A DNA stretch of 64,000 nucleotides from an uncultured Mycoplasmatota bacterium (GTDB lineage: Bacteria > Bacillota_I > Bacilli_A > RF39 > UBA660). The translations under genes and the position numbers were made by a program. Of the stretch, positions 1 to 41,747 are shown piece by piece (position 1 is the first letter of the stretch; each line of letters begins with the position of its first letter). The notes beneath the pieces were generated by a model, which made no database searches, was not told where the DNA came from, and saw nothing but the letters and a program-made list of their open reading frames with translations. The stretch is taken from NCBI GenBank assembly GCA_947574215.1, contig CANPIX010000002.1, positions 4,490 to 68,489 on the forward strand. Reading direction: 5' to 3'.

Positions 1-1986
1 AGAAATACCTTGTAAATGGAATTTCAGCACCTGTTTTAACAACTGGCTTTTTAGCACTCATATCTTCTTCAAATTTTACTATTGCATCTGGAACATGTGG
101 CAATACTTCTTCACTCATATATTCATTAATATCTTTTTTATATTTAACTATTTCAGTATCTTTTGTAGTTTTATCAAGAATAATTTCGCCATTTTTATCT
201 CTATGTATTTCTGCAGTCTTATCCATTACAGATAAGCCATCTGCTATTTTGTCAATTAAATTTTTATTTACTTCTGTATTATCAAAGATATTTTTTAAAA
301 CATTAAGAAAATCTTTCTCATTTTTATAAATTTTATTACTTTTATTATTTTCTAAAATTTTAAAAATTAAATCATACGTATTTTTATTATTTAAGTATTT
401 ATCTAATTCTTTCTTCTCTTTATATGGAATTGGCTCTAACAATTGAATTTCATCAACTTTATCCTGATTATAAAATTTATCAAAAGTACCATTAGTTCTT
501 AATTGTTCAATTCTTTCATCATTTATAGAATAATTTCTTTGTAATGGTTGATAAACTGCATATTCTTTATACAAGAACTCCTCTTTATCGAATATTTTGC
601 TATATTTATTTTCTTTAAAATCTGCATATATCTTTACTATTTTTTCGATTTGTTTTAGAGATAATTCTTTCCTCTTTTTACCTAGTGAAGTTCTTAATTG
701 CGTCCAAAATTCTTTACCTGTTGCATTAATAAGTTGTATTTTATTTCTTCTTTCTGGTCTTTTAGTTGCTTCTTTAGAAAGAATAAATATATAAATACCA
801 ATACCAGTATTATAAAATAAATCAGTTGGTAATGCTATTATTGCTTCTATTAAATCTTGTTCTATCATCCATCTTCTTATTTGGCTTTCACCCGATGATG
901 TTCCACCAGAAAATAATGGTGATCCATTTGTAATAATAGCTGCTTTACCATTATTATCCAATTTAGAAATAGCATGTTGCATAAATAATAATTGCATATC
1001 TCCAGTAGCAGGCAATCCTGCTCCAAATCTTCCTTTAAAACCTAATTTATATTCATCTTTGACAGCTTCTTCTACACCTTCAGCAGCATCTTTCCCACCC
1101 CAAGGTTGTCCAAAAGGGGGATTCATGATAACAAACCTCATTTTTTGTTCTCGTTCATTTAATGTCGCTCTAAAACAGTCTTTAATCATTGTATCTTGAA
1201 ATTTAATATTATTAGCATTTTGACCTTTTATCATCATATCTGCCAAGCATATAGCATATGATTCAGGATTAACTTCTTGACCAAATAATTGAACATCTGC
1301 ATCTGGATTCATTTTCATAATTGTATCTCTTGCAGTGCTAAGCATTCCACCAGTACCACAAGCTGCATCTAATATAGTAATTGCTTTACCTGCTTCCATA
1401 AGATCATCACAACCTTCTGAAAGTAAAATATCTACCATCAACTTTATTACTTCTCTTGGAGTAAAATGATCACCAGCTTCAGCATTTTCTGAAAACCTTC
1501 TAATTATATCTTCAAAAATATATCCCATTTTATGATTATCAACAGTTTCAGGATTTAAATCTAAATTAGAAAATTCTTTAATAACACCTAATAATCTATT
1601 ATTTTTGTCCATTTTATCTATTTCTTTTTCAAATGATAAATTGTCAATAATTTCTTTAACATTTGGTGAAAAACCTTTTATATATGATTTAAAGTTATCA
1701 GCAATGTGATCAGCATCATTTAGTAATTCTTTTAAATCAAATTTACTAGTATTATAAAAAGAATAACCTGATTTTCTACACAACATTTTACATGGCGTTG
1801 TTTTATCGCTATTATATTCATCTAATACTGCTTTTTTAGTTTTAGCAAGTGCACACTCAAATCTTCTAATGATAACTATTGGTATTATTACATCTTTGTA
1901 TTTATCGCTTTTATATGGTCCTCTTAATTTATTTGCAATACTCCAAACTATATTTACCTCTTTTGTTACATTAATTGTATCATTCA
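1..1986 (-). CDS. hsdM: Type I restriction-modification DNA methyltransferase subunit HsdM (partial; 3' end runs off window start)
   Basis: Minus-strand ORF with ATG at 1986-1984, open to position 1. It is absent from the ORF track because the window edge truncates it. My translation shows an HsdM-type N-terminus (VWSIANKLRGPYKSDKYKDVIIPIVIIRRFE), SAM motif I LDAACGTGGML, DHFTPREV, catalytic motif IV IMNPPFG, IALPTDLF, and a C-terminal GAEIPFTRYF typical of Type I M subunits. Confidence 0.8.
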
Positions 1987-2204
1987 TCTTTTTTACCTCT
2001 CTTAACTACTGCTTGTTGCTTATTTTCATCAATTTTAATTTTGCAATCTTTTCGATTAGTCATTTTTACATCATTGTCTTCTAAATGAAATATAACCATA
2101 TCTCCTTCTTCTAGTTCCATTTTATCTCTAACAATTTTAGGAATGGTAATTTGTCCTTTTGAAGTTAATTTTGCATTTGCCAAAATTTCATTATCATTAT
2201 TCAT
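1980..2204 (-). CDS. AbrB/MazE (SpoVT_AbrB swapped-hairpin) family small DNA-binding protein. Possible antitoxin or R-M controller.
   Basis: 74 aa. The motif KGQITIPKIVRDKMELEEGDMV is a typical AbrB/MazE looped-hinge beta-barrel signature. Its stop overlaps the hsdM start (ATGAATGA, 8-nt overlap), implying translational coupling. Confidence 0.7.
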   Translation of the reverse strand: MNNDNEILANAKLTSKGQITIPKIVRDKMELEEGDMVIFHLEDNDVKMTNRKDCKIKIDENKQQAVVKRGKKDE

Positions 2205-2285
2205 AATTTTTTCCTTACTTTCCTTACTCTTAAGTATAGCATATTTTTAATTAAAGATAAATATCTGAACAAAAAAAGAAAGAAA

Positions 2286-3134
2286 TTAATCTTTCTTATC
2301 AAACAAATCTTTAACTATTAAATCCTGTGAATGTAAATTATTATTTTTACCTAATAATAAATTTTCATAAAATTTAACTAAATAGCTACTATTTTCTTTT
2401 ATTTTTAAATAGTTATTAAAGTAATTACTTCTGACTAAAGCGTTTCTAAAATATACTGATTTATCTTTAAATAAACTATTATCCACATTATAACCTAAAC
2501 TTATTAAATATTTTTCAATAAATAATGCTGTTGTTCTAGTATTACCTTCTCGAAAAGGATGCACTTGCCATATATTAGATGAAAATTTAGTTATATTGTT
2601 AATAACTTCAACTATATTCATTTCTTTATAGTTTTTTTCTTTTTCTAAAGATATATCATATTCTAATGATTGAGTTAATGTATTACAATCTCCATAAGCT
2701 ACTGAATCGTTATTTAAGATTTTTTCATGTTTAGAAAAATCAATTTTTCTAAATTCACCTGCAAATTCATAAACATCTTGAAATAAAAACTTATGAACAT
2801 ATTTTAAATAATCAACTGATAATTCAAAATTATCTTCATCTAATAATTCAACTATTCTAGCAGATACAAAATCACATTCTAATTCATTATGATTTATTTC
2901 ACTTTTATTTTCTTTTTCAATATAGTATTCTCTTAATTCTTTTTCTACTTCTTCTATAGTTAAATTGCCTTCTATGTTTTCTTCTAATAGTTTTTCTAAA
3001 TATTTAGAAGGTTTTAAATTATCTACTTCTTGAAGTCCAATAGCCATATCCCATTGTAATTGTTTTACATAGTTACTAAATTTATATTCTTCTTTATATT
3101 CATTAACACTTGAATCTAATTCTTTTTCGCTCAT
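2286..3134 (-). CDS. Fic/Doc family protein (Fic_N plus Fic core) with variant active-site motif HPFREGNTRTT
   Basis: 282 aa. The N-terminal region resembles Fic_N (LQEVDNLKPS...IEGNLTIEEV). The core motif HPFREGNTRTTALF matches the Fic consensus HPFx(D/E)GNGRxxR, with the second Gly replaced by Thr. Confidence 0.75.
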   Translation of the reverse strand: MSEKELDSSVNEYKEEYKFSNYVKQLQWDMAIGLQEVDNLKPSKYLEKLLEENIEGNLTIEEVEKELREYYIEKENKSEINHNELECDFVSARIVELLDEDNFELSVDYLKYVHKFLFQDVYEFAGEFRKIDFSKHEKILNNDSVAYGDCNTLTQSLEYDISLEKEKNYKEMNIVEVINNITKFSSNIWQVHPFREGNTRTTALFIEKYLISLGYNVDNSLFKDKSVYFRNALVRSNYFNNYLKIKENSSYLVKFYENLLLGKNNNLHSQDLIVKDLFDKKD

Positions 3135-3497
3135 AATTTATACCTCCTATTCACTTACAATTATAGCATATCTTAATATATTTTTTAATCTTTATATACT
3201 ACATTTTTACTCATTTTCATTTTTAATGTTTCAGTCCATCCAGAAAAGAGTAAAAAAATACAAAAACTCTTTTTTTAAGTCGATAAATAGGAAAAACCAA
3301 AGAAGTTACTAACAAAATAAAGTATAGATTATAAAATAATAAAGCAATGAAGTATGTAATAACAAAAAGTACTATTACATATATCAAAAAAAGTACTTAT
3401 AATTCTTTAACAACACTTTTAAATATTCAGTCTATTCCAAATATACAAAAACAAATAGAAACTATTCTATCTGCATTTTTTCGTATTTTTAATAAAT

Positions 3498-5219
3498 TTA
3501 AAGTTTATAATTAATATACATTAATTCCATACTATTATATAGCAAGTTTTGATAAATTTCTTTTAATAAATATTGGCAATACACTGATCTAGTGTCTATT
3601 TTTAAGTTTTCATTAAAACCTAAAACATATATTATTTTTTTATTTCTAAACATATCCTTAAACTCATTTTTAGAAATAATTCTTTTATCTTCTTCGTTTA
3701 ATTTATCATAATATTGTTCTAAAATATTAGGCTCATTATCCCTAGCTCTACTAATTATTGAAGATGAAGTAAATACTTGATTTTCTAAATCACGCATCCC
3801 TGGTCCATTAAATTCACTTTTATTACACATTAAATAAACCGAATCATCATCCCAAAAAATCAAGTCTGCTATTTCAACATTTTTAAAATTTTTTTTATGA
3901 GCAAAAATAACATCATCAGATTCTTTAAAGGTTTCATTGTAATCATCTTCACATTTTTCATTCTTTTTCAAATTAAACGTTTTTACAATGCTATCATCTT
4001 CGCTTAAAATTATATCGCAAATATCTTTGTATTGTTGATTTAACATAGCAAAATAAGAATCCTCAAAAACATACCATTCACCATTTAATAAATAATAACT
4101 ATCACTTTCAATTTCTAAACAACCACGTATTAATGTAATAATCTTTGTTTGTGGGATAATTGTGTGTCCATTATCATCTAGAGTTAATAAATAATTGGAA
4201 TTTAAAAAATTCTTTATAAAATTGATACTCTTTTTTTTCTTACATTGTTCTACCATTAAACTAATTAAATCATCAAAACTAATTGGTTCTTCTTTTTTCA
4301 TTATTATACTATCATTATTTTTTATGATAAATTTATCTGACGAGAAGTAAAATGTTTCAATATCATCAGCTATAACTTCAAATGTTTCTATATTATTATT
4401 CAAAATACAATCATATAACAAATTGTTCAAATCTGATTTTTTCTTTCTTTTTTTCTCAGCAGGTACAAAGTAATTTAGAATAAAGTTATCTTCTTTTTTT
4501 GAAAGTTCAGATAAAGTATTTAGTACATTTTCAAGTATTTCAATAGATATGCTTTTTCTTATAACAAAGGAATCTCCACTTGATACACCTATTAATTTTT
4601 TGCTCTCTTCTACTGGAATACCCAATTTAGGAGCAAGTTCATTAGATATTTGTATTGAAAGTTCCTTATATATGCTGCCAATGTTACTTTCAGCAACTAA
4701 ACTACTCATATTTTTTGTAACTCTTCTAGTTGTTAAATTATTTCCACTAGTATTATTTTCTACAATTCTTTTTAAAACTGGATTATTTTTTTGTATTAAT
4801 TTAGGCAATAAATATAATCCAAAATTTTTCTTAATAAATTTAGATATATAATTACTTCCATGTCCACCTGTCATAACATATATTTCATCAGCAACTATTT
4901 TAAAAATTATATATGAAGAACTATCATTAAATATCTTAAATATTGTTTCATTTTCTTCGGTCATTTCCATCAAATTTAATATCAACGACTTCCAAATTGG
5001 CTCTCTTCTACTTTTTATAAAAAATATATAATATCCATTTTTTTCGTTTTTCTTAACATGATCTCTGCCACCACTTTTATTTATATAACATTCTAAATAA
5101 AATAATAATTTGTCCAATAATTCCTCTGTGCTATTTGTTTCATCAACATTATCTAAATTATCTAATATCTGTTGTTTAGAAATTTTATAAATGCTAAATT
5201 GAATTTCCTCTTTGTCCAT
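3498..5219 (-). CDS. Hypothetical protein, 573 aa, of unknown function. Candidate defence-island gene.
   Basis: Long minus-strand ORF with AT-rich codon usage consistent with its neighbours. I see no Walker A, HTH or other recognisable catalytic motif. It lies directly upstream of fic, the abrB-like gene and hsdM on the same strand. Confidence 0.6.
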   Translation of the reverse strand: MDKEEIQFSIYKISKQQILDNLDNVDETNSTEELLDKLLFYLECYINKSGGRDHVKKNEKNGYYIFFIKSRREPIWKSLILNLMEMTEENETIFKIFNDSSSYIIFKIVADEIYVMTGGHGSNYISKFIKKNFGLYLLPKLIQKNNPVLKRIVENNTSGNNLTTRRVTKNMSSLVAESNIGSIYKELSIQISNELAPKLGIPVEESKKLIGVSSGDSFVIRKSISIEILENVLNTLSELSKKEDNFILNYFVPAEKKRKKKSDLNNLLYDCILNNNIETFEVIADDIETFYFSSDKFIIKNNDSIIMKKEEPISFDDLISLMVEQCKKKKSINFIKNFLNSNYLLTLDDNGHTIIPQTKIITLIRGCLEIESDSYYLLNGEWYVFEDSYFAMLNQQYKDICDIILSEDDSIVKTFNLKKNEKCEDDYNETFKESDDVIFAHKKNFKNVEIADLIFWDDDSVYLMCNKSEFNGPGMRDLENQVFTSSSIISRARDNEPNILEQYYDKLNEEDKRIISKNEFKDMFRNKKIIYVLGFNENLKIDTRSVYCQYLLKEIYQNLLYNSMELMYINYKL

Positions 5220-5463
5220 TCATTACACCTCACTTCAAAAAATAAGCAGTATCCATCTTAAAAAAGAATGATACTGCTGTTCTTAACTACACTATACAAC
5301 AAAATTCGACAATTTTTAATATTTGAAGCAAAATTTATTGAGAATCGTTATTTTTGTACCAATAATAGGTGCAAAAACTTAGTTTTAGTATACTTTATCA
5401 ACAAATTACTTTCGCTCAGATACAACCGTCTTAATACCCTTATAAATTTAATCCATGAGAGAG

Positions 5464-5745
5464 CTAAGTCTCTCCTCCTGCATTTATGTGATTAGATACT
5501 AAAATCACATCGCTTCCTTTTCCATAAAAACTTTGTGCCCTTCCAGGTCTCACATCAGGAGATAAAGTTTCATCAGTTGTTCTAGTCATACTGTTTTCAA
5601 TTCCTAAATCGTCCAAACGATTATGGATATATTCACTTATTTTTAATGTGTACTCTTTCTCAGTAATTCCATTTGCAATAGTTCCAGGATCTGTCCCACC
5701 ATGACCAGCATCCAAAACCACTTTTTTTGTTGCTCTTATAGACAT
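5464..5745 (-). pseudogene. N-acetylmuramoyl-L-alanine amidase (Amidase_3, CwlD-like) N-terminal remnant. Truncated after ~93 aa.
   Basis: Translation MSIRATKKVVLDAGHGGTDPGT...DVILVSNHINAGGET carries the Amidase_3 N-terminal motifs (DAGHGG, SNH.NA) but stops at roughly half the length of a functional domain. Its RBS, start and first codons are repeated at 7300-7375. Confidence 0.55.
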
Positions 5746-5790
5746 GTTTTTCACCTCTACTATAAAGTATGAAAAAAGCACAATTTTGTT
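5715..5790. repeat. Direct repeat copy A (~75 bp, ~85% identical to 7300-7375) covering the RBS and 5' end of the amidase remnant
   Basis: ccaaaaccactttttttgttgctcttatagacatgtttttcacctctactataaagtatga here versus ccgaaaccactttttttgttgatcttatagacatatttttcacctctactataagatatga at 7300-7375. Confidence 0.7.
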
Positions 5791-5966
5791 ATATTTATTT
5801 AAAATTTGAAAAAATATTTAATTTTAACGATTTCCGTTAATAAAATTAATAACACATTATTAATTCATAACCCCTTTATAAATGCTTTAATAAATTTTGT
5901 AGTTAACTATCTGCATCATAAAAAATCTGTTACAATTTAGTCGTATTTTCATAATTTTTTTACAAT

Positions 5967-6003
5967 TTAAAACCCTTAACATTTTTTCTACTAAGGGTTT
6001 TAA
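5967..6003. terminator. Perfect 12-bp stem-loop (ttaaaaccctta / taagggttttaa, 13-nt loop) in the intergenic region between the TNF-like gene B and the amidase remnant
   Basis: An inverted repeat seen directly in the sequence. It is followed on the plus strand by a T-rich tract (ttatatattattttt). It may act as a transcriptional terminator or insulator, possibly bidirectional. Confidence 0.4.
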
Positions 6004-6109
6004 TTATATATTATTTTTGATTAATTCTAGATAAACTTGCTTTTGTTTTTTTCTTATGTTATTAAGAACCCTATTTACAATAATTCTTTATTAATTTAAG
6101 TTATTGTTA

Positions 6110-6589
6110 TTAAACTTCTATTTTTTCTATTGTTAATACAAGTCCTTTCACTGTTGTATATTTTACTCCACCACTTGTAACCAGTTGAATTTGAACATTT
6201 TTTGCTTGATCTAATTTTATAGTTTTTGACATAGAAAATGTTAAATATTCCATATATTGGTTATTGTTATATAAATCTACGGAAATTAGAGTATTTCTAT
6301 CACCTGAATGAACATCTATTAATCGTAATAATAATTCTGAACTTATTCCATTTTGTGCCCATTGACCATTTAAATTAAATTCATATACTCCTGGTTCATC
6401 AATTAATACTTGATTACTACTTGCTGAAAAAATATTAGTATTCTGAGGAAATATATCACTTTGTTTAATTGTGAAAGTTCCAGACTTTCCATCATTATAT
6501 ATAACATTAATTGCTGCTTCTATACCACATGAGCCATAACAACCTTTGGGAACCACAAAATCTAGTTCATATTGCTCATTTGATTTCAT
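6110..6589 (-). CDS. Small C1q/TNF-like (BclA C-terminal-domain-like) protein, paralogue B
   Basis: 159 aa. The N-terminus YELDFVVPKGCYGSCG and the block EPGVYEFNLNGQ...LVLTIEKIEV resemble the paralogue at 6654-7112 and, by my recollection, the exosporium BclA C-terminal jelly-roll domain (ETGFYKIT...IIEKVA). Confidence 0.5.
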   Translation of the reverse strand: MKSNEQYELDFVVPKGCYGSCGIEAAINVIYNDGKSGTFTIKQSDIFPQNTNIFSASSNQVLIDEPGVYEFNLNGQWAQNGISSELLLRLIDVHSGDRNTLISVDLYNNNQYMEYLTFSMSKTIKLDQAKNVQIQLVTSGGVKYTTVKGLVLTIEKIEV

Positions 6590-6653
6590 TTTATCACCTA
6601 TAATAGATTATTCTATTTTACTAAAACTGATTGTATTGATGCACATTTTTATC

Positions 6654-7112
6654 TCATATTCTAATTTTTTTAATTGTAATATTTAACTGATTTGTAAAGG
6701 CCGTATCATTTGATGTAAGATACACTCGTAAACTTTTTATAGCGTCTATTTGTAAAATTTTTGTTTGTGAAAAAAACATTGTTGAAGATTGAAAAGCATT
6801 TGTTGTAAGTTCCACTGTTATAATATTTTCCATTACTGAAGTACCATAATCTATCATTTCTAAATATAAAGTGGCACTTTGAGCATTTTTTGATAATTTG
6901 CCACTCAAAGTAATTTCATAAAAACCTGTTTCATTTAATGCTATTTCATTATTTGCAATTGTAAAAATAGTTGTTGGATTAGGCAAAGTGTCATAACTAG
7001 TTATAGGCAACATTCCTTTTTGATTTTCTTGATAATTTGCAAATAAAATTGATTCTAAACCACAAGCTCCTTTTGGGATAACAAAATCTAGTTTATATTC
7101 ATCCAAATTCAT
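6654..7112 (-). CDS. Small C1q/TNF-like (BclA C-terminal-domain-like) protein, paralogue A
   Basis: 152 aa. YKLDFVIPKGACG, NETGFYEITLSGKL and a C-terminal ITIKKIRI. These blocks are shared with the 6110-6589 paralogue. Confidence 0.5.
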   Translation of the reverse strand: MNLDEYKLDFVIPKGACGLESILFANYQENQKGMLPITSYDTLPNPTTIFTIANNEIALNETGFYEITLSGKLSKNAQSATLYLEMIDYGTSVMENIITVELTTNAFQSSTMFFSQTKILQIDAIKSLRVYLTSNDTAFTNQLNITIKKIRI

Positions 7113-7299
7113 ATAATCACCTGTTAATATTTTATGAAATTTATTTTAATTTTGTATGGGACTTATACTATTTTTATTAAAAATTTTCATAATAAAAAAT
7201 ACTTTCCTATCGAAGTACCCTAATTCCTTGTATTTACTATTTCTTTATAACCATTTCTTTTATTTTTGAATTTAACAGATTTCTCGATGACTAGGCATC

Positions 7300-7375
7300 C
7301 GAAACCACTTTTTTTGTTGATCTTATAGACATATTTTTCACCTCTACTATAAGATATGATATTAACACAATTTAG
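7300..7375. repeat. Direct repeat copy B. A second copy of the amidase 5' end with RBS, ATG and 13 codons (MSIRSTKKVVSDA) then a stop.
   Basis: Reverse complement of 7293-7334 reads atgtctataagatcaacaaaaaaagtggtttcggatgcctag. This is ~85% identical to 5715-5790. Confidence 0.7.
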
Positions 7376-7432
7376 CAATTTTTACTTAAAGTTTTCCATT
7401 ATTAGCTAAAAAAATACAAATAAAAAACAGCT

Positions 7433-8524
7433 TTAACTCGCTGCTTTTGATAAATGAATTGTCGTTGTTTTAAGTTCACTACCGCGATAATAACTTATTT
7501 CAACTTTGTCTCCAACACTATGCTTATAAAGTTGATATTTCAAAAAAGCCAAACTCGTAATGTCTGCATCTCCAAGTTTTACAATAATATCTCTACTTTT
7601 TAACCCTGCTTTATCTGCAGGACTATCACTTTCTACTGTATCTATATACACTCCGCTCGTTACAGGAGCATCAACTCGAATTAAAATATCTGATAAATTA
7701 TACATAGAAACACCCAGATATGGTCTAGAAATACTTTCCCCCTTTTCAAATTTTTCTGCATACCACAATGCATCTTCAATTGGTATAGCAAAACCCATTC
7801 CTTCAATTTGACTGCTCGCAAGTTTCATAGACGTTATACCTATAACTTCACCATTTGAATTAGATAATGGTCCACCACTATTTCCAGAGTTAATTGCCGC
7901 GTCGGTTTGAATAACACTCATGACCCAATCACTAACATTATTATTTTTTAAACTCACCTCAACCATTCTATCTTTTCCAGATAAAATTCCTCTTGTAACA
8001 GTCCAAGAATAAGCACTGCTGTCGATTGGAGCCCCTACAGCAAACACAGTATCTCCAATTCTAGTTGCACTATTATTACCAAGTTGAGCAACACTTAAAA
8101 TATTTTTACTGTCCACTGTTAATACAGCAATATCTGCGTATTTGTCACTTCCAACAATTTTTGCCTCCACTGAACTATTATTAGTAAACACAACACGTAC
8201 GGCATCTCCACTTTCAATAACATGATTATTTGTTAAAATATAACCATTGCCATTTTCATTTTTATATACAAAACCTGTACCCGTAGCATACAATTTATCT
8301 TTTTTATAAGTTTCAATAGTTACTACTGAATCATAAACTTTCTCAACAGCGTCCGCTATGCCAGTTTCTGTTACGGTAACATCTTTAATGGTCTTAGTTA
8401 TATTTTCCGTTATATTCATTGGAGAATATTTAACTAAAGCAAACATGGAAAGAGATCCCAAAAAAAACACTCCCATTAAGACAACAACATATTTAACTAC
8501 TTTATTTATTTTATTTTCTTGCAT
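7433..8524 (-). CDS. htrA: HtrA/DegP-family trypsin-like serine protease with N-terminal TM anchor and C-terminal PDZ
   Basis: 363 aa. Catalytic triad contexts TNNHVIESG (His), DIAVLTV (Asp) and GNSGGPL (Ser). A hydrophobic N-terminal segment is present. Confidence 0.8.
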   Translation of the reverse strand: MQENKINKVVKYVVVLMGVFFLGSLSMFALVKYSPMNITENITKTIKDVTVTETGIADAVEKVYDSVVTIETYKKDKLYATGTGFVYKNENGNGYILTNNHVIESGDAVRVVFTNNSSVEAKIVGSDKYADIAVLTVDSKNILSVAQLGNNSATRIGDTVFAVGAPIDSSAYSWTVTRGILSGKDRMVEVSLKNNNVSDWVMSVIQTDAAINSGNSGGPLSNSNGEVIGITSMKLASSQIEGMGFAIPIEDALWYAEKFEKGESISRPYLGVSMYNLSDILIRVDAPVTSGVYIDTVESDSPADKAGLKSRDIIVKLGDADITSLAFLKYQLYKHSVGDKVEISYYRGSELKTTTIHLSKAAS

Positions 8525-8525
8525 T

Positions 8526-9455
8526 TCAATCTATCCTTTCTATTTCTAAATAATTAATGGGAAAACCCATTTTTTCTAAAACTTTTCCAATACTTATACT
8601 TTCTAATTTTCCATTTAATTTTTGTATTTCATAGTCAAGTTCTTTTATTAAAGAATGAAAATCATCTTTACGCAATAACTGCTTTAAAATAATAATTAAA
8701 GAAAATAAATCATCTTTACCATAAATATATTCCGATTCCAATTTAGGTATTTCTAATTTTTCATGAAATCTTGTATCATTAATTTTTCTTTGTACTCTGT
8801 GATCAAATAAAATTTCTTCATGAGCACACAAGTTTCGAAAATTAGCTAAAACGGGAAGATAAGTAGCCAAATCATTTGCATCTACCTTAAAAAACTCTGC
8901 AATGGCTTTCTGATCGCTTGGTTTCAAAATCAAAAAAAGTTCGCTAACAATCCCAAAAGACAAAACTTTCACGGCAATCCACAAAGGAATATATCCATAT
9001 CTTGAATTATAATGAGAAGTCGCTGTGTGACTATCAGCATTTGAACGAATCTGCCTTTTCATTTTATTAATCAAATCATTAATTTGCCTACGTTTCTCTG
9101 GGTGATTGTTAAAATTATTTGGATTTAAATAATCGTTTTCTTTAATACCATACGTTCTAGACAGATGGTACGAAATAAAACTTTTCAAATTATTTTCAAT
9201 AATCAGTAAATTTTTAAATAAAATATTTCGAACTTGACGATCAAAATTAAAAACGCCATACAATTGTCTAAAACTAGTTCCAGGAACAAAACTTTTATCT
9301 ATTAAAGATTTCATAAATAATGTTCGATATCCACTTATAAAGAAATAATTTTCACGTAGCAATATTTCTTTTGTCGCCGATACATCTTCAATAATCATCC
9401 CTTTGTTTTCTAAAATCAAAACCTGTTCATCTAAAGTTTTAAATATTTTATTCAC
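8526..9455 (-). CDS. Abi_2 family abortive-infection protein (AbiD/AbiF-like)
   Basis: 309 aa. The N-terminal pattern LDEQVLILENKGMIIEDVSATKEILLRENYFFISGY matches the Abi_2 (AbiD/AbiF) signature (..EQ..LL..RGL.I.D......L...NYYRLSGY). Its stop lies 1 nt from the htrA start. Confidence 0.75.
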   Translation of the reverse strand: MNKIFKTLDEQVLILENKGMIIEDVSATKEILLRENYFFISGYRTLFMKSLIDKSFVPGTSFRQLYGVFNFDRQVRNILFKNLLIIENNLKSFISYHLSRTYGIKENDYLNPNNFNNHPEKRRQINDLINKMKRQIRSNADSHTATSHYNSRYGYIPLWIAVKVLSFGIVSELFLILKPSDQKAIAEFFKVDANDLATYLPVLANFRNLCAHEEILFDHRVQRKINDTRFHEKLEIPKLESEYIYGKDDLFSLIIILKQLLRKDDFHSLIKELDYEIQKLNGKLESISIGKVLEKMGFPINYLEIERID

Positions 9456-9555
9456 ACTATCACCTTGCCCTACATTATATCATACTGGATAAGCAGAGTA
9501 TATAGTTTTCACGTGTCCTTTATGTTATAATATTGTGAAAGGAATGTGAAAATTT

Positions 9556-10524
9556 ATGCCATTAATTACAACACACAATTATTTTGCTAACGACGTTTTT
9601 TCTAAAACAAATAGTAACATTACGAAAACATTTCAAGAGAAAAAAAATATTTATGAACTTTTTGCACAAGGAACCGATCCATTTATCTTTTATGAATGCT
9701 TTCGCCCTAAAAAATCAGATTATCAACATCTTTGCCATACACAAAACACAGATATTTTTTTTCTAAGATTTATAAAAAAAATAAAAGAGAAAAAATTAAC
9801 ACAAAATCCATTGGTACTTGCGTCTCTTTATGGACAGTTAACTCACTATATACTTGATAGTACCATCCATCCTTATGTTGTTTACAAAACGGGATTTTAT
9901 AACAAAAAAGATAAAAATACTCTAAAATACAACGGTCTTCACAACCAATTCGAATTACAACTAGATGCTTATCTGTATGAACAAAGAGAAAAGAAAGCTT
10001 TTAAAAAGTTTAAAATACACAAATATTTAATTGCAAAAGAAAAATGGGATATAGAACTTATAATTTTACTAAATGAAATTTATTATGAAGTATACAATAT
10101 AAAAAATGGTGGTACAAAATTACAAAAAGGCTGTCACATAATGTATAATTCTTATAAATATTTAATAGAAGATAAAATAGGTATTAAAAAGAAAATTTAT
10201 AAATTATTAGATAAAATGACTCCTAAAAAAGTAGGTGTATACGAAAACTTTAATTCACATGTTACCAAAATAGATCTTTCTATACTAAATCAAAATCACA
10301 AAATTTGGTACAATCCTTGGGATAATTCCATAAAAAGTAAAGAATCTTTTTTTGATTTATACAATAAAGCACTAGAAGATTGTATTCTTCTATTTGAAGC
10401 CACCCATAAATTTTTAAATGATCAAATCACCGAGAAAGCATATAAAGATATATTAAAAGATAAATCTTACTTAACTGGATTATCTTGGAAATTAAATAAA
10501 GAAATTAAATATTTAGAGTTTTAA
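9556..10524 (+). CDS. Hypothetical protein, possibly zinc-dependent phospholipase C-like
   Basis: 322 aa. The N-terminus MPLITTHNYFANDVF resembles the His-containing N-terminus of zinc-dependent PLC-family proteins. It is the only plus-strand gene in the left half and overlaps the cwlD 3' end convergently by 12 nt. Weak call. Confidence 0.35.
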   Translation: MPLITTHNYFANDVFSKTNSNITKTFQEKKNIYELFAQGTDPFIFYECFRPKKSDYQHLCHTQNTDIFFLRFIKKIKEKKLTQNPLVLASLYGQLTHYILDSTIHPYVVYKTGFYNKKDKNTLKYNGLHNQFELQLDAYLYEQREKKAFKKFKIHKYLIAKEKWDIELIILLNEIYYEVYNIKNGGTKLQKGCHIMYNSYKYLIEDKIGIKKKIYKLLDKMTPKKVGVYENFNSHVTKIDLSILNQNHKIWYNPWDNSIKSKESFFDLYNKALEDCILLFEATHKFLNDQITEKAYKDILKDKSYLTGLSWKLNKEIKYLEF

Positions 10525-11172
10525 ACTACCCATAGCCTCCGCGATAATTCGAGCTAACTTTTTTTGATAATCTTCTTTCACTAAAAGGGTTCTTTCGTGT
10601 GCATTAGACAAAAAGCCACACTCAATTAAAACACCTTCTACTTTTAATTCCTTATACATATAAGTAGAACTCGGTATTAATTTTATTTCTCTATTGGTTT
10701 TTAAAGATTTATTAAGTTCATTTTGAATATGTTCCGCAATAACTTTATTATTTTCTTTTTTCTTATTATAAAAAACTTGTGGTCCATAATAATTTGAATC
10801 ATCTAAGTAATTCAAATGGATTGACAAATAATAATTTGCACCACTATTATTAATCATTTTGATTCGATTATCAAAATCACTCTTCTTACGCCAAGAAGCA
10901 TTTGGCTTAGACAAATCATAATCTTCATTGCGAATTAATATGACACTTGCCCCAAGTTTAGTAAGTTCACTCTCTAATGCTTTAGAAATAGCAAGATTAA
11001 TATCTTTTTCATAAATAGTACCAGACATTGTACCTGGGTCTGCTCCACCATGTCCAACATCAACAACTATTAATTTTCCGGATAAAGGCAAACTAGCTAG
11101 CACAATTTTATTAGCAAAGCAGAGTATCATAACAACAAATAAAATACTAATTTTATAAAAATAACTTTTCAT
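10513..11172 (-). CDS. cwlD: Germination-specific N-acetylmuramoyl-L-alanine amidase CwlD
   Basis: 219 aa with a signal/TM N-terminus and Amidase_3 motifs (VVDVGHGGADPG, YLSIHLN). It lies downstream of rpsI as in B. subtilis (rplM-rpsI-...-cwlD). Confidence 0.8.
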   Translation of the reverse strand: MKSYFYKISILFVVMILCFANKIVLASLPLSGKLIVVDVGHGGADPGTMSGTIYEKDINLAISKALESELTKLGASVILIRNEDYDLSKPNASWRKKSDFDNRIKMINNSGANYYLSIHLNYLDDSNYYGPQVFYNKKKENNKVIAEHIQNELNKSLKTNREIKLIPSSTYMYKELKVEGVLIECGFLSNAHERTLLVKEDYQKKLARIIAEAMGSLKL

Positions 11173-11430
11173 ATTAAACTATATGCAAATAAAAAGGAAA
11201 TAAACTTTAATTCTTTTCCTAATTTATTTAATATGATTCCATTCGTTTTACTTTTCTTTTAAGTTTTTAATAACCAAAAACGTATCTTTAAAATTTCTCA
11301 GATTTATAAGAAAAACAAGTAAAAAATACTTTTTACTTCCAATTCGTTTGATACTAAATTTTTATTAATATATTCTTTTTTATAAATTAAAAAAACCCAC
11401 CAAAATAGGCAAGTTTTTATGAAAATATTT

Positions 11431-11853
11431 CTAACGTTTACTAAATTGTGGTGCACGACGTGCTTTTTTAAGTCCTGGTTTCTTACGTTCTTTAATTCTC
11501 GGATCTCTTGTAACAAAACCAGCTGTTTTTAAAATCTTACGATAAGAATCATCTCTAGTTTGATCAGAATTAGCATCATACTTTAAAAGTGCACGTGTAA
11601 TTCCTAAACGAATAGCTCCTGTTTGACCAGAAAAACCTCCACCCTTAACATTAACTGTAATGTCAAATTTATTTTCATTATTGGTCATAGTTAAAGGTTG
11701 TTTCAAATCCATTACTAGCGTTTGATAAGGCATATAATCATTAACATCTACTCCATTAATAATTATGTTACCCGTTCCACCAGTAAGTGTTACTTGGGCA
11801 CTAGAACGTTTTCTACGTCCTGTTGCAGTCCAACTTTGTTTACTTGTAGCCAT
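11431..11853 (-). CDS. rpsI: 30S ribosomal protein S9
   Basis: 140 aa. GGGFSGQTGAIRLGITRAL and a C-terminal KKARRAPQFSKR. Confidence 0.9.
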   Translation of the reverse strand: MATSKQSWTATGRRKRSSAQVTLTGGTGNIIINGVDVNDYMPYQTLVMDLKQPLTMTNNENKFDITVNVKGGGFSGQTGAIRLGITRALLKYDANSDQTRDDSYRKILKTAGFVTRDPRIKERKKPGLKKARRAPQFSKR

Positions 11854-11862
11854 AATACCCTC

Positions 11863-12294
11863 CTAATCCACTTTCAATTCTATAGGTTGTTGTGCTGATT
11901 GTTTGTGTTCTGCACCAGCATAAACAAATAACTTTTTCGCCATTTGTCTTCCAAGTCTATTATGAGGAAGCATTCCTTTAATAGCTCTTTCAACCATTTC
12001 TTCTGGATAATTTTCAATCATAGTTTTGGCATTACGTTCTCTAAGTCCACCTGTATAACCACTATGATTATAATACATCTTATCGTTTAACTTATTACCA
12101 GTTAAATTAACTTTTGAAGCATTTACTATAACTACATAATCTCCACAATCAACGTGAGGAGTATATGTAACTTTGTGTTTACCTCTTAAAATTGTTGCAG
12201 CTTTTGTAGCCACACGACCTAAATTCTTACCACTTGCATCAATCACATACCACTTGCGTTCAATATTTTCTTTTTTTTGCATGAATGTTTTCAT
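11863..12294 (-). CDS. rplM: 50S ribosomal protein L13
   Basis: [20 protein letters not shown] is a canonical L13 N-terminus. The true start is probably the internal Met (12294) rather than the ORF-track start at 12312. Confidence 0.9.
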
Positions 12295-12380
12295 AGCATA
12301 TTTTCCTTTCATTAGTTATCTACAAAATTTACTTTCCCAGGGTAAACTTGTTTCGTAACAAATAAAATGTACCAGTTAAA

Positions 12381-12409
12381 ATTATATGCAACAATTAAGA
12401 AATTGTCAA
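12381..12409 (-). promoter_or_regulatory. Consensus sigma-A promoter TTGACA-17-TATAAT for the rplM-rpsI operon
   Basis: Minus-strand reading: tttgacaatttcttaattgttgcatataat. The -35 is at 12409-12404 and the -10 at 12386-12381. A ~60-nt leader precedes the rplM RBS. Confidence 0.6.
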
Positions 12410-12415
12410 ATAAAA

Positions 12416-12763
12416 TCATAGTTTTTTACAACGATTTATATACATTTCATCTAATTTATTATATTCTTGAACATTATAACCTAGAATTTCAGAAATATTT
12501 TCACTTCTAGCAAGTTTTAAACAATTCAGTACTATACACATTTCTTCTGTAGATAAAAAATTTATATATTTCCAATTTCTTCCAATTAACAAAACAATTT
12601 TTCCCAAACATTTTCTTATTAATTTTTTTCTTTTTTTTATACAATAACACAAATAATCATATTCGCTATTTAATTCCATTCGAAAGCAATAACCTGGTTG
12701 TTTACTTTCAATCTGCTTTTTTCTTAAATTCCTTATTTCTCCCAAGTCTATAATTTCATTCAT
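12416..12763 (-). CDS. Hypothetical small protein with a possible C-terminal HTH
   Basis: 115 aa. STEEMCIVLNCLKLARSENISEILGY looks like an HTH or sigma-region-4-like segment. It sits between truA and rplM, which are adjacent in B. subtilis. Confidence 0.4.
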   Translation of the reverse strand: MNEIIDLGEIRNLRKKQIESKQPGYCFRMELNSEYDYLCYCIKKRKKLIRKCLGKIVLLIGRNWKYINFLSTEEMCIVLNCLKLARSENISEILGYNVQEYNKLDEMYINRCKKL

Positions 12764-32493: not shown

Positions 32494-32525
32494 TAAAAAA
32501 ATGTTCCACGTGGAACATTTTTTTA
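32494..32525 (-). terminator. Rho-independent terminator after gyrA (perfect palindrome atgttccacgtggaacat flanked by A/T runs; bidirectional)
   Basis: An 18-nt perfect palindrome at 32501-32518 immediately after the gyrA stop (32523-32525), followed on the minus strand by T7. Confidence 0.7.
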
Positions 32526-35024
32526 ATCACTAGAAATCTGATTTTCCTTTTCTTCTGCTGATAAACTATTTTCATTTGTTTCCAAAACAGTTTCATCTTC
32601 TTCTATCATTTCTGGAGTTTTTTCAACTAAACTTATATTCGATACTTCCTGATTTTCTTTTAAATTAATAACTCTTACTCCTTGAGTAACTCTTCCCAAA
32701 ATATTAATTTGATCAAGTGGTACTCTTATTACCATACCTGTATTCGTAATGATAACTAAGTCACTATTTTCTTGAGCTAATCGGAATGCCGCCATCGAAC
32801 CATTTTTTTCTGTGATATTAAGTGCTTTTACTCCTTTGCTTCCTCTTCTTGTTTGTCGATAATCACTAATTTTGGTTTGTTTTCCATAACCTTTTTTAGT
32901 AACAATAATTAAGGAATCATTATCTGTTGCAATTTCTGCACCAATACACTCCCCACCATCTAAGTTAATTCCACGAACTCCACTAGCAGTTCTTCCCATA
33001 ACTCGAATTTCATCTTCAATAAATTTGACCATTCTTCCATTATCTGACCCTAACAATATACAATCAGATCCTGTCGTCTTTTGAACTGAAATGAGTTCGT
33101 CATTTGGTCGTAAACTAATACAAATTTTACCATTATTACGTATACTATCAAATTCGGTAATACTAGTTCTTTTAACAATTCCTAATTTTGTAGCAAACAA
33201 TAAATATTTAGCTGTATCTTCTCTTTTTACACTTAAAATAGAATTAATTTTTTCTTCTTTTTCAATTTGCAACAAGTTGATAACTGGTAATCCTTTAGAT
33301 TGACGACTAAACTCTGGTATTTCATACCCCTTTAAACGATACACTTTTCCTTTATTCGTAAAGAATAAAATATAATCATGTGTGGATAAGTTTACCAAAT
33401 GTTCAACAAAATCTTCTTCATTGGTATTCATACCCTTAATTCCTACTCCACCACGATTTTGTAATTTAAAAGTATCAGAAGTTGTACGTTTAATATAACC
33501 ATTGTGAGTAAGTGCTATCATTATGTCTTCTTCTGGTATTAAAGATTCATCTTCAATAAATTCAATAGCGGACATATCAATATTTGTTCTTCTCTCATCT
33601 GCATATTTGTTTTTAATTTCAAGAAGTTCTTCTCTTATAATACCAAGAATTTTTTCTTCACTTGCTAAAATACTTCTTAACTCTTCTATTGATTTTAATA
33701 ATTCTGCAAGTTCATTTTCAATTTTTTCGCGTTCCAATCCAGTCAAACGACGCAATTTCATTTCTAGAATTGCATTGGCTTGAATATCATCAAGACCAAA
33801 TTTTGCCATCAATTGTTCTTTAGCAATAATATCAGTTGCAGATTCACGAATAGTTTTAATAACTTCGTCTAAATGATCCAAAGCAATTTTTAAACCTTCT
33901 AAAATATGAACTCGATCCAAAGCTTTATCTAAATCGTATTGTGTTCTTCGAATAATAATTTCTTTTTGATAATCAATATATTTCGATAAGATATCTTTAA
34001 GTCCAAGTATTTTTGGTGAACCTTGATCAATCATCAACAAATTAATACCATAAGTGGTTTGCAATTGCGTGTATTTATATAAATTATTTAATACTACATT
34101 TGCGTTAGCATCACGTTTTAAATAAATAACCACACGAACTGGATTTTCTAAATTTGATTCTTCATGAAGTTCACTAATTCCATCAATAATTTTGTCACGA
34201 ACCAGTTCTCCAATACGAGACTGAAATTCTGCTTTATTTACTTTATAAGGTAAAGCTGTAACCACAATTCGAGTTTTGCCACCATCTTCTTCAATATCAG
34301 CCTGTCCACGAATCGTAATAGAACCTTTACCTGTTTCGTAAGCCTTTCTAATACCGCTATTCCCTAAAATAGAGGCTCCAGTTGGAAAATCAGGTCCTTT
34401 AATGTATTGCATTAATCCATCCGTATCAATTTCATGATTATCAATATAGGCAACACAACCATCAATGACTTCTCCTAAATTATGTGGTGGTATATTAGTA
34501 GCCATACCAACAGCTATTCCCATTGTTCCATTTACTAAAATATTAGGAAATCGACTCGGTAAAATAACAGGTTCACTTTCTGTTTCATCAAAATTTGGGA
34601 CAAAATCAACAGTATTCTTATTTAAATCACGAGTCATTTCCAAAGCAAGTTTTGAAAGTCTTGCTTCCGTATAACGCATGGCAGCTGCACCATCACCATC
34701 CATATTACCAAAGTTCCCATGACCATCCACAAGCATATGTCGATAAGTAAAATCTTGAGCCATTCCCACCATAGCTTCATAAATAGATGAATCACCATGA
34801 GGATGATATTTACCCATTACATCTCCAACAATTCTGGCACTTTTACGATGTGGTTTATCGGGAGTATATCCAGATTCATACATGGAATACAAAATACGAC
34901 GATGAACTGGTTTTAAACCATCACGAAGGTCTGGAATCGCACGAGCGGTAATAACACTCATAGAATAATCTAAAAAGGATTTTTGTACTTCTTGTACGAT
35001 ATTATTTTCTATAATTCTTTCCAT
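32523..35024 (-). CDS. gyrA: DNA gyrase subunit A
   Basis: 833 aa. [18 protein letters not shown], the active-site Tyr region ([10 protein letters not shown]), the QRDR ([13 protein letters not shown]) and C-terminal beta-pinwheel repeats. Confidence 0.95.
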
Positions 35025-35033
35025 ATAAACCTC

Positions 35034-38049
<3,016 letters not shown>

Positions 38050-38155
38050 ATTTAGCCTCTTTTACGCCCGTATAATAAAATAATAGGTATTTATGTACTC
38101 CTATACCTATTAAAATTATATCATAAAAAACACACTATTTGTAATTTTTTTCTGT

Positions 38156-38641
38156 TTATTTTTGAATTTTTCGATCTTTCAATACGGATTCTAATCTTGT
38201 TGCTCTCAATATTTGATTATTAATCGTTTCATAAGAAATATTTAATAAAATTTTATCCCCATTTTTAAATTCTACTACTAAGTGATTGTTTTGGTAATAA
38301 TAATTTTTAATTTTATTAGAACGCAACCAAGAACAATTTTTTTGTTTTGGACTAGATGTAGGAAAAAAAATTAAATCTTTACTTTCTTCTACGATTATTG
38401 GAACTTTATAGGTGACACCAATTAAATTATTTGTCCCTTTCTTTCTTCCATCCATAGAACTTCCAAAATAAGAACAACTGGTTTCCATAATTTCATTTGC
38501 AGATTGATCTACCACAAAATTTTTATCTTCCTCATAAATTCTTGTTTTATTAGACATAGAAAATAATGCAACCGTATTTTCATTGATCTCATACTTTTCC
38601 ATAGTTTCACCTCCCACCTGATTAAAATTGTTTTCTATCAT
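38156..38641 (-). CDS. comK: ComK-family competence transcription factor homologue
   Basis: 161 aa. SCSYFGSSMDGRKKGT, LIFFPTSSPKQKNCSWL and NNQILRATRLESVLKDR align with B. subtilis ComK blocks (SCRFFGSSYAGRKAGT, IFLFPTLSSTRPQCGWI, ENQVYRTAWLRTKFQDR) as I recall them. Confidence 0.6.
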   Translation of the reverse strand: MIENNFNQVGGETMEKYEINENTVALFSMSNKTRIYEEDKNFVVDQSANEIMETSCSYFGSSMDGRKKGTNNLIGVTYKVPIIVEESKDLIFFPTSSPKQKNCSWLRSNKIKNYYYQNNHLVVEFKNGDKILLNISYETINNQILRATRLESVLKDRKIQK

Positions 38642-38692
38642 AAAACCTTAAAAAGAAAAATTTTGTCGGAAAATGAAAAAACTTACTATTTT

Positions 38693-39811
38693 TTAGTAAG
38701 TTTTAATTGGTAGAATAAGTTGAATTAAAGATTCATCACTGATTGATTTTATTACAATTGGTTTTACATCATCAGTCATTAATAACAAGATTTCCTCTTC
38801 TTTAATAGTTTTTAAAGCCTCTAACATATACTTTGAACTAAAAGAAATATCTATAGCAGAACTTGTATCTGTATCTACGATAAGTTTTTCTTCTACTTTT
38901 CCAATTTCTGAAGCATAGGAATTAATCGTAATCACTTTATTCTCTAATTTCATTTTTATAATATTTTTATCTTTTCCTTGAGTAAGTAATGCAGCTCTAT
39001 CTACACTAGCAGAATACTCATCTTTATTAACTTTTACTATAATGCCGTACTCTGTAGGAATTAAATTGGAAGTGTTGGGATAAGTTCCTGATAAAAGATT
39101 GGTTTGAAATTTTATATTTTTATATTTAAATAATACTTTATTATTGAAAATATGCATTTCTACTTCCTCTTCGTCCGTAATTATTTTTTCCAATTCAATA
39201 ATATTTTTTCCTGGTATAACAATATTCACGTCCGTAGATATAGGACTATCTAATTTAACATTTTTCTTGGCCAATCGATAAGAATCTGTTGCAATAAATA
39301 GAAGCTCATCTCCAATAATTGAAACATTTACCCCAGTTAATAAAGGACGAAGTTCTTGATTGGATATGGCAAAAACCGTTTGATTAATTAAAGATTTTAA
39401 TACATCCCCTTTTAAAAGAATTGGATCCTTATGTTCTTCTAACTTTAAATTAGGATAATCATTTGCGTCTAAACAATTTAAGTTAAATTGAGCATTTTCT
39501 GTATAAATTCTTATTTTTAAACGATCAATTACTTCAAAATTAATTGTGTCACTAGGTAGTTTTCTAACTATATCTAATAAAAATTTACTTTGAATAATTA
39601 TTGTTCCTGTTGTCCCTATATTTTGAATTTCTTTTTCTTCAATATAAGAGGTAATGGTAAGTTCACTATCACTCGCGGTTAGAAAAAGTCCTTTATTCGT
39701 TAATTCAAATTTAATTCCATTTAAAACTGGAATAACATTTTTTGTAGATACCCCTTTTATTACATTGTTTAAGTTTTCTAATAAAATAGTTTTCGAAATT
39801 GTAAATTTCAT
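38693..39811 (-). CDS. dnaN: DNA polymerase III beta sliding clamp
   Basis: MKFTISKTILLENLNNVIKGVS is a typical DnaN N-terminus, and the protein has three-domain length. The likely start is 39811. The ORF track extends it to 39838. Confidence 0.9.
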   Translation of the reverse strand: MKFTISKTILLENLNNVIKGVSTKNVIPVLNGIKFELTNKGLFLTASDSELTITSYIEEKEIQNIGTTGTIIIQSKFLLDIVRKLPSDTINFEVIDRLKIRIYTENAQFNLNCLDANDYPNLKLEEHKDPILLKGDVLKSLINQTVFAISNQELRPLLTGVNVSIIGDELLFIATDSYRLAKKNVKLDSPISTDVNIVIPGKNIIELEKIITDEEEVEMHIFNNKVLFKYKNIKFQTNLLSGTYPNTSNLIPTEYGIIVKVNKDEYSASVDRAALLTQGKDKNIIKMKLENKVITINSYASEIGKVEEKLIVDTDTSSAIDISFSSKYMLEALKTIKEEEILLLMTDDVKPIVIKSISDESLIQLILPIKTY

Positions 39812-39854
39812 TTGTTTTTCCTTCTTTCTTTTTTTCAATTTTTTTATTTTTATT

Positions 39855-39960
39855 ATAGTGTGGATAACGTGTATAAGTCGTTTTTCTATTGAAATAACTG
39901 AAAAATTTGTAGTGGATAACTTTTTCTTTTGTCTTTCTTTTTTTTAAACTTATCCACTTT
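39855..39960. promoter_or_regulatory. oriC segment 2: DnaA-box cluster in the dnaA-dnaN intergenic region plus an AT-rich putative unwinding element
   Basis: tgtggataa (39859-39867, perfect), agtggataa (39911-39919) and ttatccact (39950-39958), with T/A-rich tracts between them. Confidence 0.7.
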
Positions 39961-39961
39961 T

Positions 39962-41317: not shown

Positions 41318-41379
41318 ATTCCATCACCCCACTCTTTGCTACTTTATGTAATTTCATTTTATCTCAATAAATTTGGATT

Positions 41380-41610
41380 GAAAAGTAAAAAAACATATCC
41401 ACATAACTATCCACAAGTTATCCACTAAAATTTCCATTATAATATCTTACTTTTTGTTATTTATCAACATTATCCACAAATTTCGTTTTTTTTCATTGTC
41501 CACATGTTACTATCTTATATTAAAAAAAGTGGACTTGGTTTATAACTCTCTTTCTTTTAGATATAGATTAAAAAATTATCCACATAGAATTATGATTTAT
41601 AAGAAAGGAA
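41380..41610. promoter_or_regulatory. oriC segment 1: DnaA-box cluster upstream of dnaA
   Basis: atatccaca (41415-41423), ctatccaca (41427-41435), ttatccact (41438-41446), ttatccaca (41490-41498, perfect), ttgtccaca (41516-41524) and ttatccaca (41596-41604, perfect). All are in the same orientation. Confidence 0.8.
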
Positions 41611-41747
41611 AATAATTTTAAAGTAAAAACTGGTATATATATTTTTATCGTTGCATTTAATAAATGGATAAACATATGATTGTAATAGTTCAGACAAAAT
41701 AGAAAAAATTTTAAAGAAAAATTAAATTAAAGAAATTATCTTATTTC

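Follow-up and report, generated by a model that had tools for sequence, protein, structure and literature searches.

What does a large gene of no assigned function do beside a Type I restriction-modification (R-M) locus? The question is raised by the window analysed here, meaning the whole stretch of 64,000 nucleotides (nt) from an uncultured Mycoplasmatota bacterium (GenBank assembly GCA_947574215.1, contig CANPIX010000002.1, positions 4,490 to 68,489, forward strand). On the minus strand of window positions 1-5219 lie, in this order, an open reading frame (ORF) of 573 amino acids (aa), a Fic gene, an AbrB/MazE gene, and a partial hsdM; an earlier note, made from the letters alone, had listed these four ORFs in the same order, and they are found as described. 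In our estimate, the chances are about even that the 573-aa protein, a member of the DUF6119/TIGR04141 family, works in immunity as a stand-alone nuclease that targets DNA. The grounds presented are its predicted folds, residue conservation, a separate transcription unit, the genomic context, and cassette behaviour.

3498..5219, minus strand: DUF6119/TIGR04141 gene, candidate defence nuclease (573 aa; ORF plus Pfam/NCBIfam profiles)

Family assignment

The 573-aa protein belongs to DUF6119/TIGR04141. It matches PF19614 (DUF6119) with 91.4 bits against a cut-off of 27 (E 7e-26, profile positions 27-502 of 524) and TIGR04141 with 77.1 bits against a cut-off of 35 (E 1e-21, profile positions 18-459 of 516). 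Both curated thresholds are passed in the profile search, and the family that the earlier note had tentatively named is the correct one. A word search retrieves 237 homologues; of 1.84e9 representatives, 895 clusters at 50% identity belong to the family. Nearly all homologues are 560-610 aa long and share a single architecture, with no additional Pfam domain in the 54 members scanned. The family is rare and sporadic, occurring in Bacilli, Clostridia, Bacteroidaceae, and others. The window protein thereby matches both the typical length of ~575 aa and the patchy distribution of what is catalogued as a "sporadically distributed protein". Its closest match, with 97% protein identity, comes from a Hadza-gut metagenome-assembled genome (MAG).

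Other searches with the 573-aa protein return little. No PADLOC v2.0.0 family matches it at E <= 0.1, PHROGs gives 0 matches, and sequence searches of the PDB with the protein and the family profiles yield chance matches only. Two Pfam hits were dropped as too weak, namely DUF3800 (E 0.025) and Tox-REase-2, the latter present in only 2 of 54 family members. A housekeeping-enzyme match, which would speak against a defence role, was looked for and did not appear. No functional literature on DUF6119/TIGR04141 was found. The family is catalogued but functionally blank and carries no fold assignment, and the predicted architecture and defence link described here are absent from the searchable literature and from PADLOC v2.

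Predicted structure and conserved residues

The AlphaFold2 model of the protein, computed with 54 homologues as input, is confident, with a predicted local distance difference test score (pLDDT) of 85.5. Its best Foldseek matches are RdgC (E 1e-4, probability 1.0) and the kinetochore protein CENP-L. The model is divided as follows.

4200..5219, minus strand: N-terminal half, approximately residues 1-340; alpha/beta modules with an RdgC/CENP-L-like fold, putative DNA-binding clamp
3501..4199, minus strand: C-terminal region, residues 341-573; includes the predicted PD-(D/E)xK restriction-endonuclease-like domain
3777..3950, minus strand: putative active-site segment, residues 424-481 (E424, H441, E449, D452, C465, N466, K467, R476, D477, Q481)

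The C-terminal domain (residues ~420-570) is predicted to adopt a PD-(D/E)xK restriction-endonuclease fold. The earlier note had seen no obvious PD-(D/E)xK in this protein, which holds at the level of the sequence motif and fails at the level of the fold, where the predicted structure shows it. The broader statement that the protein has no recognisable motif gives way to the catalytic domain predicted by modelling.

Conservation was read from an alignment of 58 DUF6119 sequences, reaching down to 19% identity. E449, D452, K467, and Q481 are invariant herein, and E424 and R476 are conserved in at least 98%. Position 441, a histidine in the window protein, is D in 38 sequences, H in 19, and N in one. 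Only H or C occurs at position 465, where the window protein has a cysteine, and either residue there suggests a softer metal. Of the 58 sequences, 54 have D or E at position 477. In the model, these conserved residues map to the helix-strand-strand-strand-helix (αβββα) elements expected of a nuclease core. The placement of D452 and K467 fits the D...(D/E)xK arrangement by secondary structure, not by residue-level superposition, and the (D/E) position is occupied by H or C. E449 and D/E477 could stand in for the missing (D/E), as in Cfr10I-type sites. As modelled, the site looks like a live variant of the form ExxD...(H/C)xK...R(D/E)xxxQ, preceded by a conserved E.

The N-terminal half appears to resemble RdgC and CENP-L in structure only. 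RdgC is a recombination-associated protein, and the paper on the lambda RexA crystal structure describes a fold class of non-specific DNA binders that includes RdgC, RexA, and Iml3/Chl4 (PMC11077077). RexA is not among the listed Foldseek matches of the 573-aa model, and the Pfam RdgC model (PF04381) finds no match in 54 DUF6119 members. Comparison of the family profile by hhalign gives probabilities of 0.1% for E. coli RdgC and 0.2% for lambda RexA, each as a single-sequence template. Because these probabilities do not exceed 0.2%, homology to RdgC or RexA is not claimed. The same half contains a glycine-rich TGGxG loop (residues 117-121, window 4857-4871) in a strand-loop-helix setting, in which G119 is invariant in 58 of 58 sequences, followed by an invariant K/R140. 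The loop and K/R140 could form a phosphate- or nucleotide-binding element.

A DNA-binding-like N terminus joined to a FokI/N.BspD6I-like cleavage domain, with no ATPase, as the model suggests, would also suit a Type IV modification-dependent restriction enzyme. Herein, the N-terminal modules would read a foreign modification, the FokI-like domain would cut nearby, and allele swaps would change the specificity. The predicted N-terminal fold is, however, unlike the known modification readers (SRA, PUA/EVE/ASCH, the Mrr-N winged helix, DUF262), the structures closest to it are non-specific binders of the DNA backbone, and there is no Pfam or PADLOC match to a Type IV system.

Transcription units

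The separateness of the gene, a part of the stand-alone reading, can be judged from the sequence between it and its neighbours.

2286..3134, minus strand: Fic-domain gene (282 aa; Pfam Fic E 1e-11)
1980..2204, minus strand: AbrB/MazE-fold gene (74 aa; Pfam MazE_antitoxin, TIGR01439 AbrB)
1..1987, minus strand: hsdM, Type I R-M methyltransferase (initial 662 codons; continues past the window edge)
3443..3486, minus strand: intrinsic-terminator-like hairpin with a 10-bp stem and T-run, directly 3' of the DUF6119 stop codon (free energy, ΔG, -15.8 kcal/mol)
3143..3188, minus strand: fic promoter (TTAAAA-17-TGcTATAAT, extended -10) and AGGAGG ribosome-binding site (RBS), kept in L001/L002 (L numbers denote the loci compared)

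The DUF6119 and fic genes are separated by 363 bp. The hairpin in this gap has a z-score (z) of -4.4, with none of 200 shuffles equally stable; it is kept in L001 (z -6.6), and a canonical terminator rich in GC takes its place in L008. The extended -10 promoter sequence of fic, TGCTATAAT, lies at 3188-3160. Because a terminator-like hairpin is followed by a fic promoter and RBS, the DUF6119 gene forms its own transcription unit in the window, and the four-gene operon proposed in the earlier note is rejected there. The idea that the gap derives by decay from the 220-aa membrane extension of the L017 Fic protein was also discarded, as tblastn found no similarity. The fic-abrB gap of 81 bp contains a -10-like sequence, TGCTATACT, and no hairpin.

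L017/L043 are arranged differently: only 12 nt separate DUF6119 from a 502-aa Fic gene with a hydrophobic N-terminal extension, and MazE-HsdM-HsdS-HsdR come next. Because of this tighter packing, the operon picture may hold in these loci. It is the starting point of the explanation nearest to the earlier operon idea, namely that DUF6119 is an accessory or guardian tied to the neighbouring R-M or Fic genes, either degrading restriction products or firing when a phage inhibits R-M, like PrrC/RloC in hsd loci. The 12-nt spacing in L017/L043 favours such a tie, whereas the terminator and promoter between DUF6119 and fic in the window oppose it.

Leader of the DUF6119 gene

The candidate nuclease gene is preceded by a structured leader.

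5237..5276, minus strand: leader hairpin and U-tract (CAGUAUC...GAUACUG-CUUAUUUUUU), 17-19 nt before the start codon (ΔG -21.8, z -3.7)
5291..5319, minus strand: promoter-like site, 5' of the leader hairpin: TTAAAA-17-TATAGT (consensus match only)

The order is a promoter-like TATAGT, the hairpin with its U-tract, and a GAGGTG RBS. Transcription of DUF6119 must traverse this terminator-like structure. The element occurs once per locus at the identical place in 16 related loci (L001-L006, L017, L021-L024, L026, L027, L035, L043, L044), including all three alleles of the gene distinguished below; L027 shares it despite a different genomic context. No second copy is present in those 16 loci or in the 64-kb window. 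The stem shows one compensatory change (C-G vs U-A), and an Rfam search of window 1-6200, the leader hairpin included, gave no match. The hairpin could be a terminator/attenuator or a 5' stabiliser.

Genomic context across homologues

The context survey covers 36 reference-genome loci plus metagenome contigs, with ~22 independent contexts. Type I R-M genes lie beside DUF6119 in the window, L001, L007, L008, L010 (directly after hsdR), L017, L021, and L033. Dcm/Type II genes lie beside it in L003-6, L014, L022/23, L036, L037-42, L046 (AlwI), L047 (NgoFVII), L048 (Dcm and HNH), and L054 (a controller-methylase array). Other neighbours are AbiD, prokaryotic Argonaute (pAgo), DUF3427, a Schlafen (SLFN) helicase, MazG-like, NERD, ThsB-TIR, AAA_15, and ApeA, as well as serine or tyrosine recombinases/integrases. 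The earlier note had held that homologues that never sit in defence islands would count against a defence role; the survey shows recurrent defence neighbours. Its proposal of an uncharacterised defence candidate within an R-M locus is strongly backed by this context in many lineages and by the predicted nuclease fold.

Some half of the ~22 contexts carry a DNA methyltransferase at a distance of up to 10 kb; the enrichment of R-M genes is judged from what is generally known of R-M density. Since the other half show no methylase over this distance, DUF6119 is not an obligate R-M endonuclease; the contexts with a methylase already have a candidate endonuclease, and this assignment is rejected. 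The lack of an obligate cognate methylase, yet frequent linkage to several R-M types, is in turn a point for the Type IV reading. It is established that Mrr and McrBC adjoin hsdRMS in the immigration control region of E. coli. Weighed against the unfamiliar N-terminal fold and the missing Type IV matches, we nevertheless consider a Type IV enzyme unlikely.

The accessory or guardian role finds further support in individual loci. In L010, DUF6119 comes right behind hsdR; it closes both the L054 array (HTH-methylase-306aa-167aa; HTH, helix-turn-helix) and the L056 pAgo array, and it precedes Fic again in the Clostridia MAG L008 (44%/43% identity). Across loci, however, the partners vary (Type I, several Type II, pAgo, or none) with no specific partner conserved, and most loci have no Fic. 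An accessory or guardian role is rated as quite improbable.

It may also be asked whether the gene serves defence at all. In this explanation, DUF6119 would have a mobile-element or DNA-metabolism function, either as an RdgC-like recombination modulator with a nuclease or as a homing-type selfish nuclease, and would merely hitch-hike in variable islands. Integrases, serine recombinases, and replication genes are common neighbours, the distribution is sporadic, the gene abuts a truncated amidase gene in the window, and RdgC itself is recombination-associated. Against this, no relatives of the window DUF6119 clade are found by tblastn in 50,697 phage and 72,556 plasmid records or by a pattern scan of IMG/VR viral contigs. 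In the gut Bacilli lineage, the gene keeps to one chromosomal slot that has no integrase, its composition is host-like, and its neighbours are overwhelmingly defence genes, not transfer or replication genes. A non-defence role is accordingly judged improbable.

Several arrays were also observed. In L037-L042, L046, and L047, a MazG-like gene (104 aa) and a Schlafen-group-3-like helicase (~640 aa) lie upstream of DUF6119, and this block recurs with three different R-M modules ahead of it. Next to the helicase comes an identical 62-aa protein in L037-L042 and L047, with different small ORFs there in L046. The block may be a separate multi-gene defence system. L056:534-6327 is a tight array of pAgo (763 aa, PADLOC pAgo_II E 1e-27), a 150-aa and a 406-aa protein, and DUF6119 (589 aa), a hint that DUF6119 may be an Argonaute-associated effector in this one lineage. 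L054:3525-8803 encodes an HTH controller, a fused D12/N6_N4 methyltransferase, proteins of 306 aa and 167 aa, and DUF6119, joined by overlaps or 8-nt gaps; neither the 306-aa nor the 167-aa unknown protein has a PADLOC match.

Allelic exchange in a conserved slot

Within the gut Bacilli, the DUF6119 gene behaves as an exchangeable cassette. The slot is kept as truncated amidase - DUF6119 - variable R-M/Fic module, and three classes of DUF6119 occupy it, with 91-97%, 50%, and 32-35% protein identity, the flanking Fic being 88-90% identical. Between the window and L017, the DNA is 90% identical over hsdM-abrB-fic up to position 3187. Leader DNA, including the initial ~35 nt of the coding sequence (CDS), is 71% identical to the window in L017 and 83-86% in L021/L024. 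The remainder of the CDS is unalignable at the DNA level between the window and L017. The same is observed when window 3188-5184 is compared with L017, L021, L024, and L025: the CDS is unalignable (protein identity 32-35%), and the flanks have 71-94% DNA identity. These alignments show allelic replacement within flanks that stay conserved, as is typical of loci under diversifying selection. That divergent alleles share one slot is a further point for the Type IV explanation, in which allele swaps would change specificity; it belongs equally to the cassette behaviour on which the stand-alone nuclease reading draws.

In four of the 36 reference loci (L008, L020, L031, L032), a stop codon or frameshift breaks the DUF6119 reading frame. 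These interruptions may be real decay or MAG assembly error, and they fit a dispensable or costly gene.

5464..5781, minus strand: truncated N-acetylmuramoyl-L-alanine amidase (Amidase_3; Pfam, profile positions 1-78 of 174)
8526..9455, minus strand: AbiD (Abi_2) abortive-infection gene (Pfam Abi_2 E 5e-41; PADLOC AbiD E 7e-58)

The slot is situated downstream of rplM-rpsI-cwlD, and the truncated amidase is its upstream border. The amidase fragment lies directly upstream of DUF6119 in ~12 MAGs, the best with 73% protein identity to the window copy. A direct repeat of 100 nt (5708-5807 and 7295-7394, 85% identical), derived from the 5' end of the truncated amidase gene, flanks two paralogous unknown genes at 6110-6589 and 6654-7112. 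Because these paralogous genes are missing from L024, an insertion with duplication is suggested.

The AbiD gene provides defence context 3.3 kb upstream of DUF6119. It adjoins a gene for an HtrA-like protease with Trypsin_2 and PDZ domains (7433-8524), and the pair is syntenic in eight related MAGs. The source genome, of uncultured gut Bacilli, is very AT-rich (27.5% GC); the base composition of the locus is host-like, with no distinctive sign of recent transfer, and a tRNA search of window 1-12500 found none. The replication origin region spans 32523-47269, with gyrA, gyrB, dnaN, and dnaA on the minus strand divergent from mnmE and mnmG on the plus strand. From this position, the defence slot lies ~36 kb from oriC and is co-oriented with replication.

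The hsdM, AbrB, and Fic neighbours

The partial hsdM encodes a Type I methyltransferase, as the earlier note had recognised, with HsdM_N and N6_Mtase domains in Pfam and a PADLOC MTase_I score of 744 bits; its start, given there as 1986, is corrected to an ATG at 1987. The predicted translational coupling with abrB is borne out to the extent that an 8-nt overlap (ATGAATGA; hsdM start, abrB stop) is consistent with it. The hsdS and hsdR genes would lie past the window edge, and both are present in L017/L043, where they follow a 93% identical hsdM of 696 aa.

AbrB co-occurs only with this hsdM allele (window, L017/L043) and not with Fic, which is present without AbrB in L001, L021, and L025. Because AbrB tracks hsdM and Fic occurs alone, AbrB is likelier to belong to the R-M operon than to be a Fic antitoxin, and it is probably the first gene or a regulator of the Type I R-M operon. 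This mismatch in co-occurrence, together with a Fic motif that departs from the canonical HxFx(D/E)GNGRxxR, speaks against Fic and AbrB as a toxin-antitoxin pair, and the pairing is rejected.

The window Fic protein matches the PADLOC candidate PDC-S72 (PDLC05078, E 1.4e-80, 269 bits, profile positions 6-274 of 377). Its variant motif, HPFREGNTRTTA, is kept in homologues that follow DUF6119, including that of L008 at 43% identity. Fic proteins in this position (compared at window 2286-3134, L008:11969-13027, and L017:11726-13234) share HPF(R/C)EGNTRTTA, which differs from the canonical AMPylation motif in lacking its second Gly and its last Arg, and they match PDC-S72 as well. In L017, L021, and L025, the Fic ORF is ~500 aa long and has 3-4 hydrophobic N-terminal segments. 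Fic is a neighbour of DUF6119, not a demonstrated partner.

Proposed mechanism

As a stand-alone nuclease, the 573-aa protein would act as a dimer, by analogy with the dimers of RdgC and RexA and with FokI. Its RdgC-like halves may hold DNA in a clamp or move along it in search of targets, and so bring two FokI-like nuclease domains into place for cutting. By the same analogies, self and non-self would be told apart by the type of DNA bound, such as free ends of the invader, replication or recombination intermediates, or foreign modification, with no partner methylase involved. The terminator-like leader hairpin would limit basal expression. Fic, AbrB, and the Type I R-M genes next to it would not encode subunits; they would share a defence hot spot, downstream of rplM-rpsI-cwlD, as independent neighbours. 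The complete picture is a single-gene immune system, throttled by its leader and diversified as a cassette, in which an RdgC/CENP-L-fold clamp senses invader DNA structures and gates the fused FokI-like nuclease. We put it forward tentatively, as a possibility rather than an expectation, and with the same reserve it may be described as a Rex-like sensor fused to a restriction-like effector.

If true, this would give a function to an entirely uncharacterised family and add a sensor-effector combination to the bacterial immune nucleases. It would also tie the RdgC-type fold, which is common to the published RexA structure, to direct DNA destruction; the way in which the classic Rex system perceives infection has, to our knowledge, yet to be settled. 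A compact DNA clamp with a FokI-like nuclease could be of interest for enzymologists. In gut Bacilli, a very AT-rich and under-studied group, the locus illustrates the exchange of defence-gene cassettes beside variable R-M modules.

Comparison with known systems

Sensor-plus-nuclease defence candidates are numerous. Judged by its model, the 573-aa protein would fall, unproven, among those that combine a sensor with a PD-(D/E)xK nuclease.

In its predicted cleavage domain, it is comparable to the Type IIS enzymes and nickases FokI and N.BspD6I and to NucS, with no detectable sequence similarity to any of them. FokI-type domains have D...(D/E)xK, whereas DUF6119 has ExxD...(H/C)xK. In contrast to FokI-type enzymes, DUF6119 neither requires a cognate methyltransferase nor contains recognisable sequence-recognition domains. 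With the Type IV enzymes Mrr and McrBC, it shares the character of a solitary nuclease (predicted here), the lack of an own methylase, and Type I R-M neighbours; unlike them, it has no match to Mrr_cat, McrB, or another Type IV domain.

Another comparison is with defence nucleases that consist of one protein and have their sensor domain at the N terminus (nuclease domains of Shedu SduA, Hachiman HamA, Upx, and Hna). No Pfam or PADLOC model of these systems (DUF4263/Shedu, HamA, Upx, Hna) matches the 573-aa protein, its N-terminal fold differs from theirs, and it has no helicase partner.

The apparent likeness to the DNA-binding ring RdgC of E. coli, the eukaryotic Iml3/Chl4 (CENP-L/N) proteins, and, through the published structure, lambda RexA is one of fold only, with low TM-scores and no profile similarity. 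The Rex exclusion system pairs its sensor RexA with the membrane partner RexB, whereas no RexB-like gene adjoins DUF6119. Rex signals to a membrane channel; the putative sensor of DUF6119 is instead fused to a predicted nuclease. Three features set DUF6119 apart among the many candidates of this kind: an RdgC-type fold predicted to be fused to a nuclease, in-place allele swapping, and a conserved leader element.

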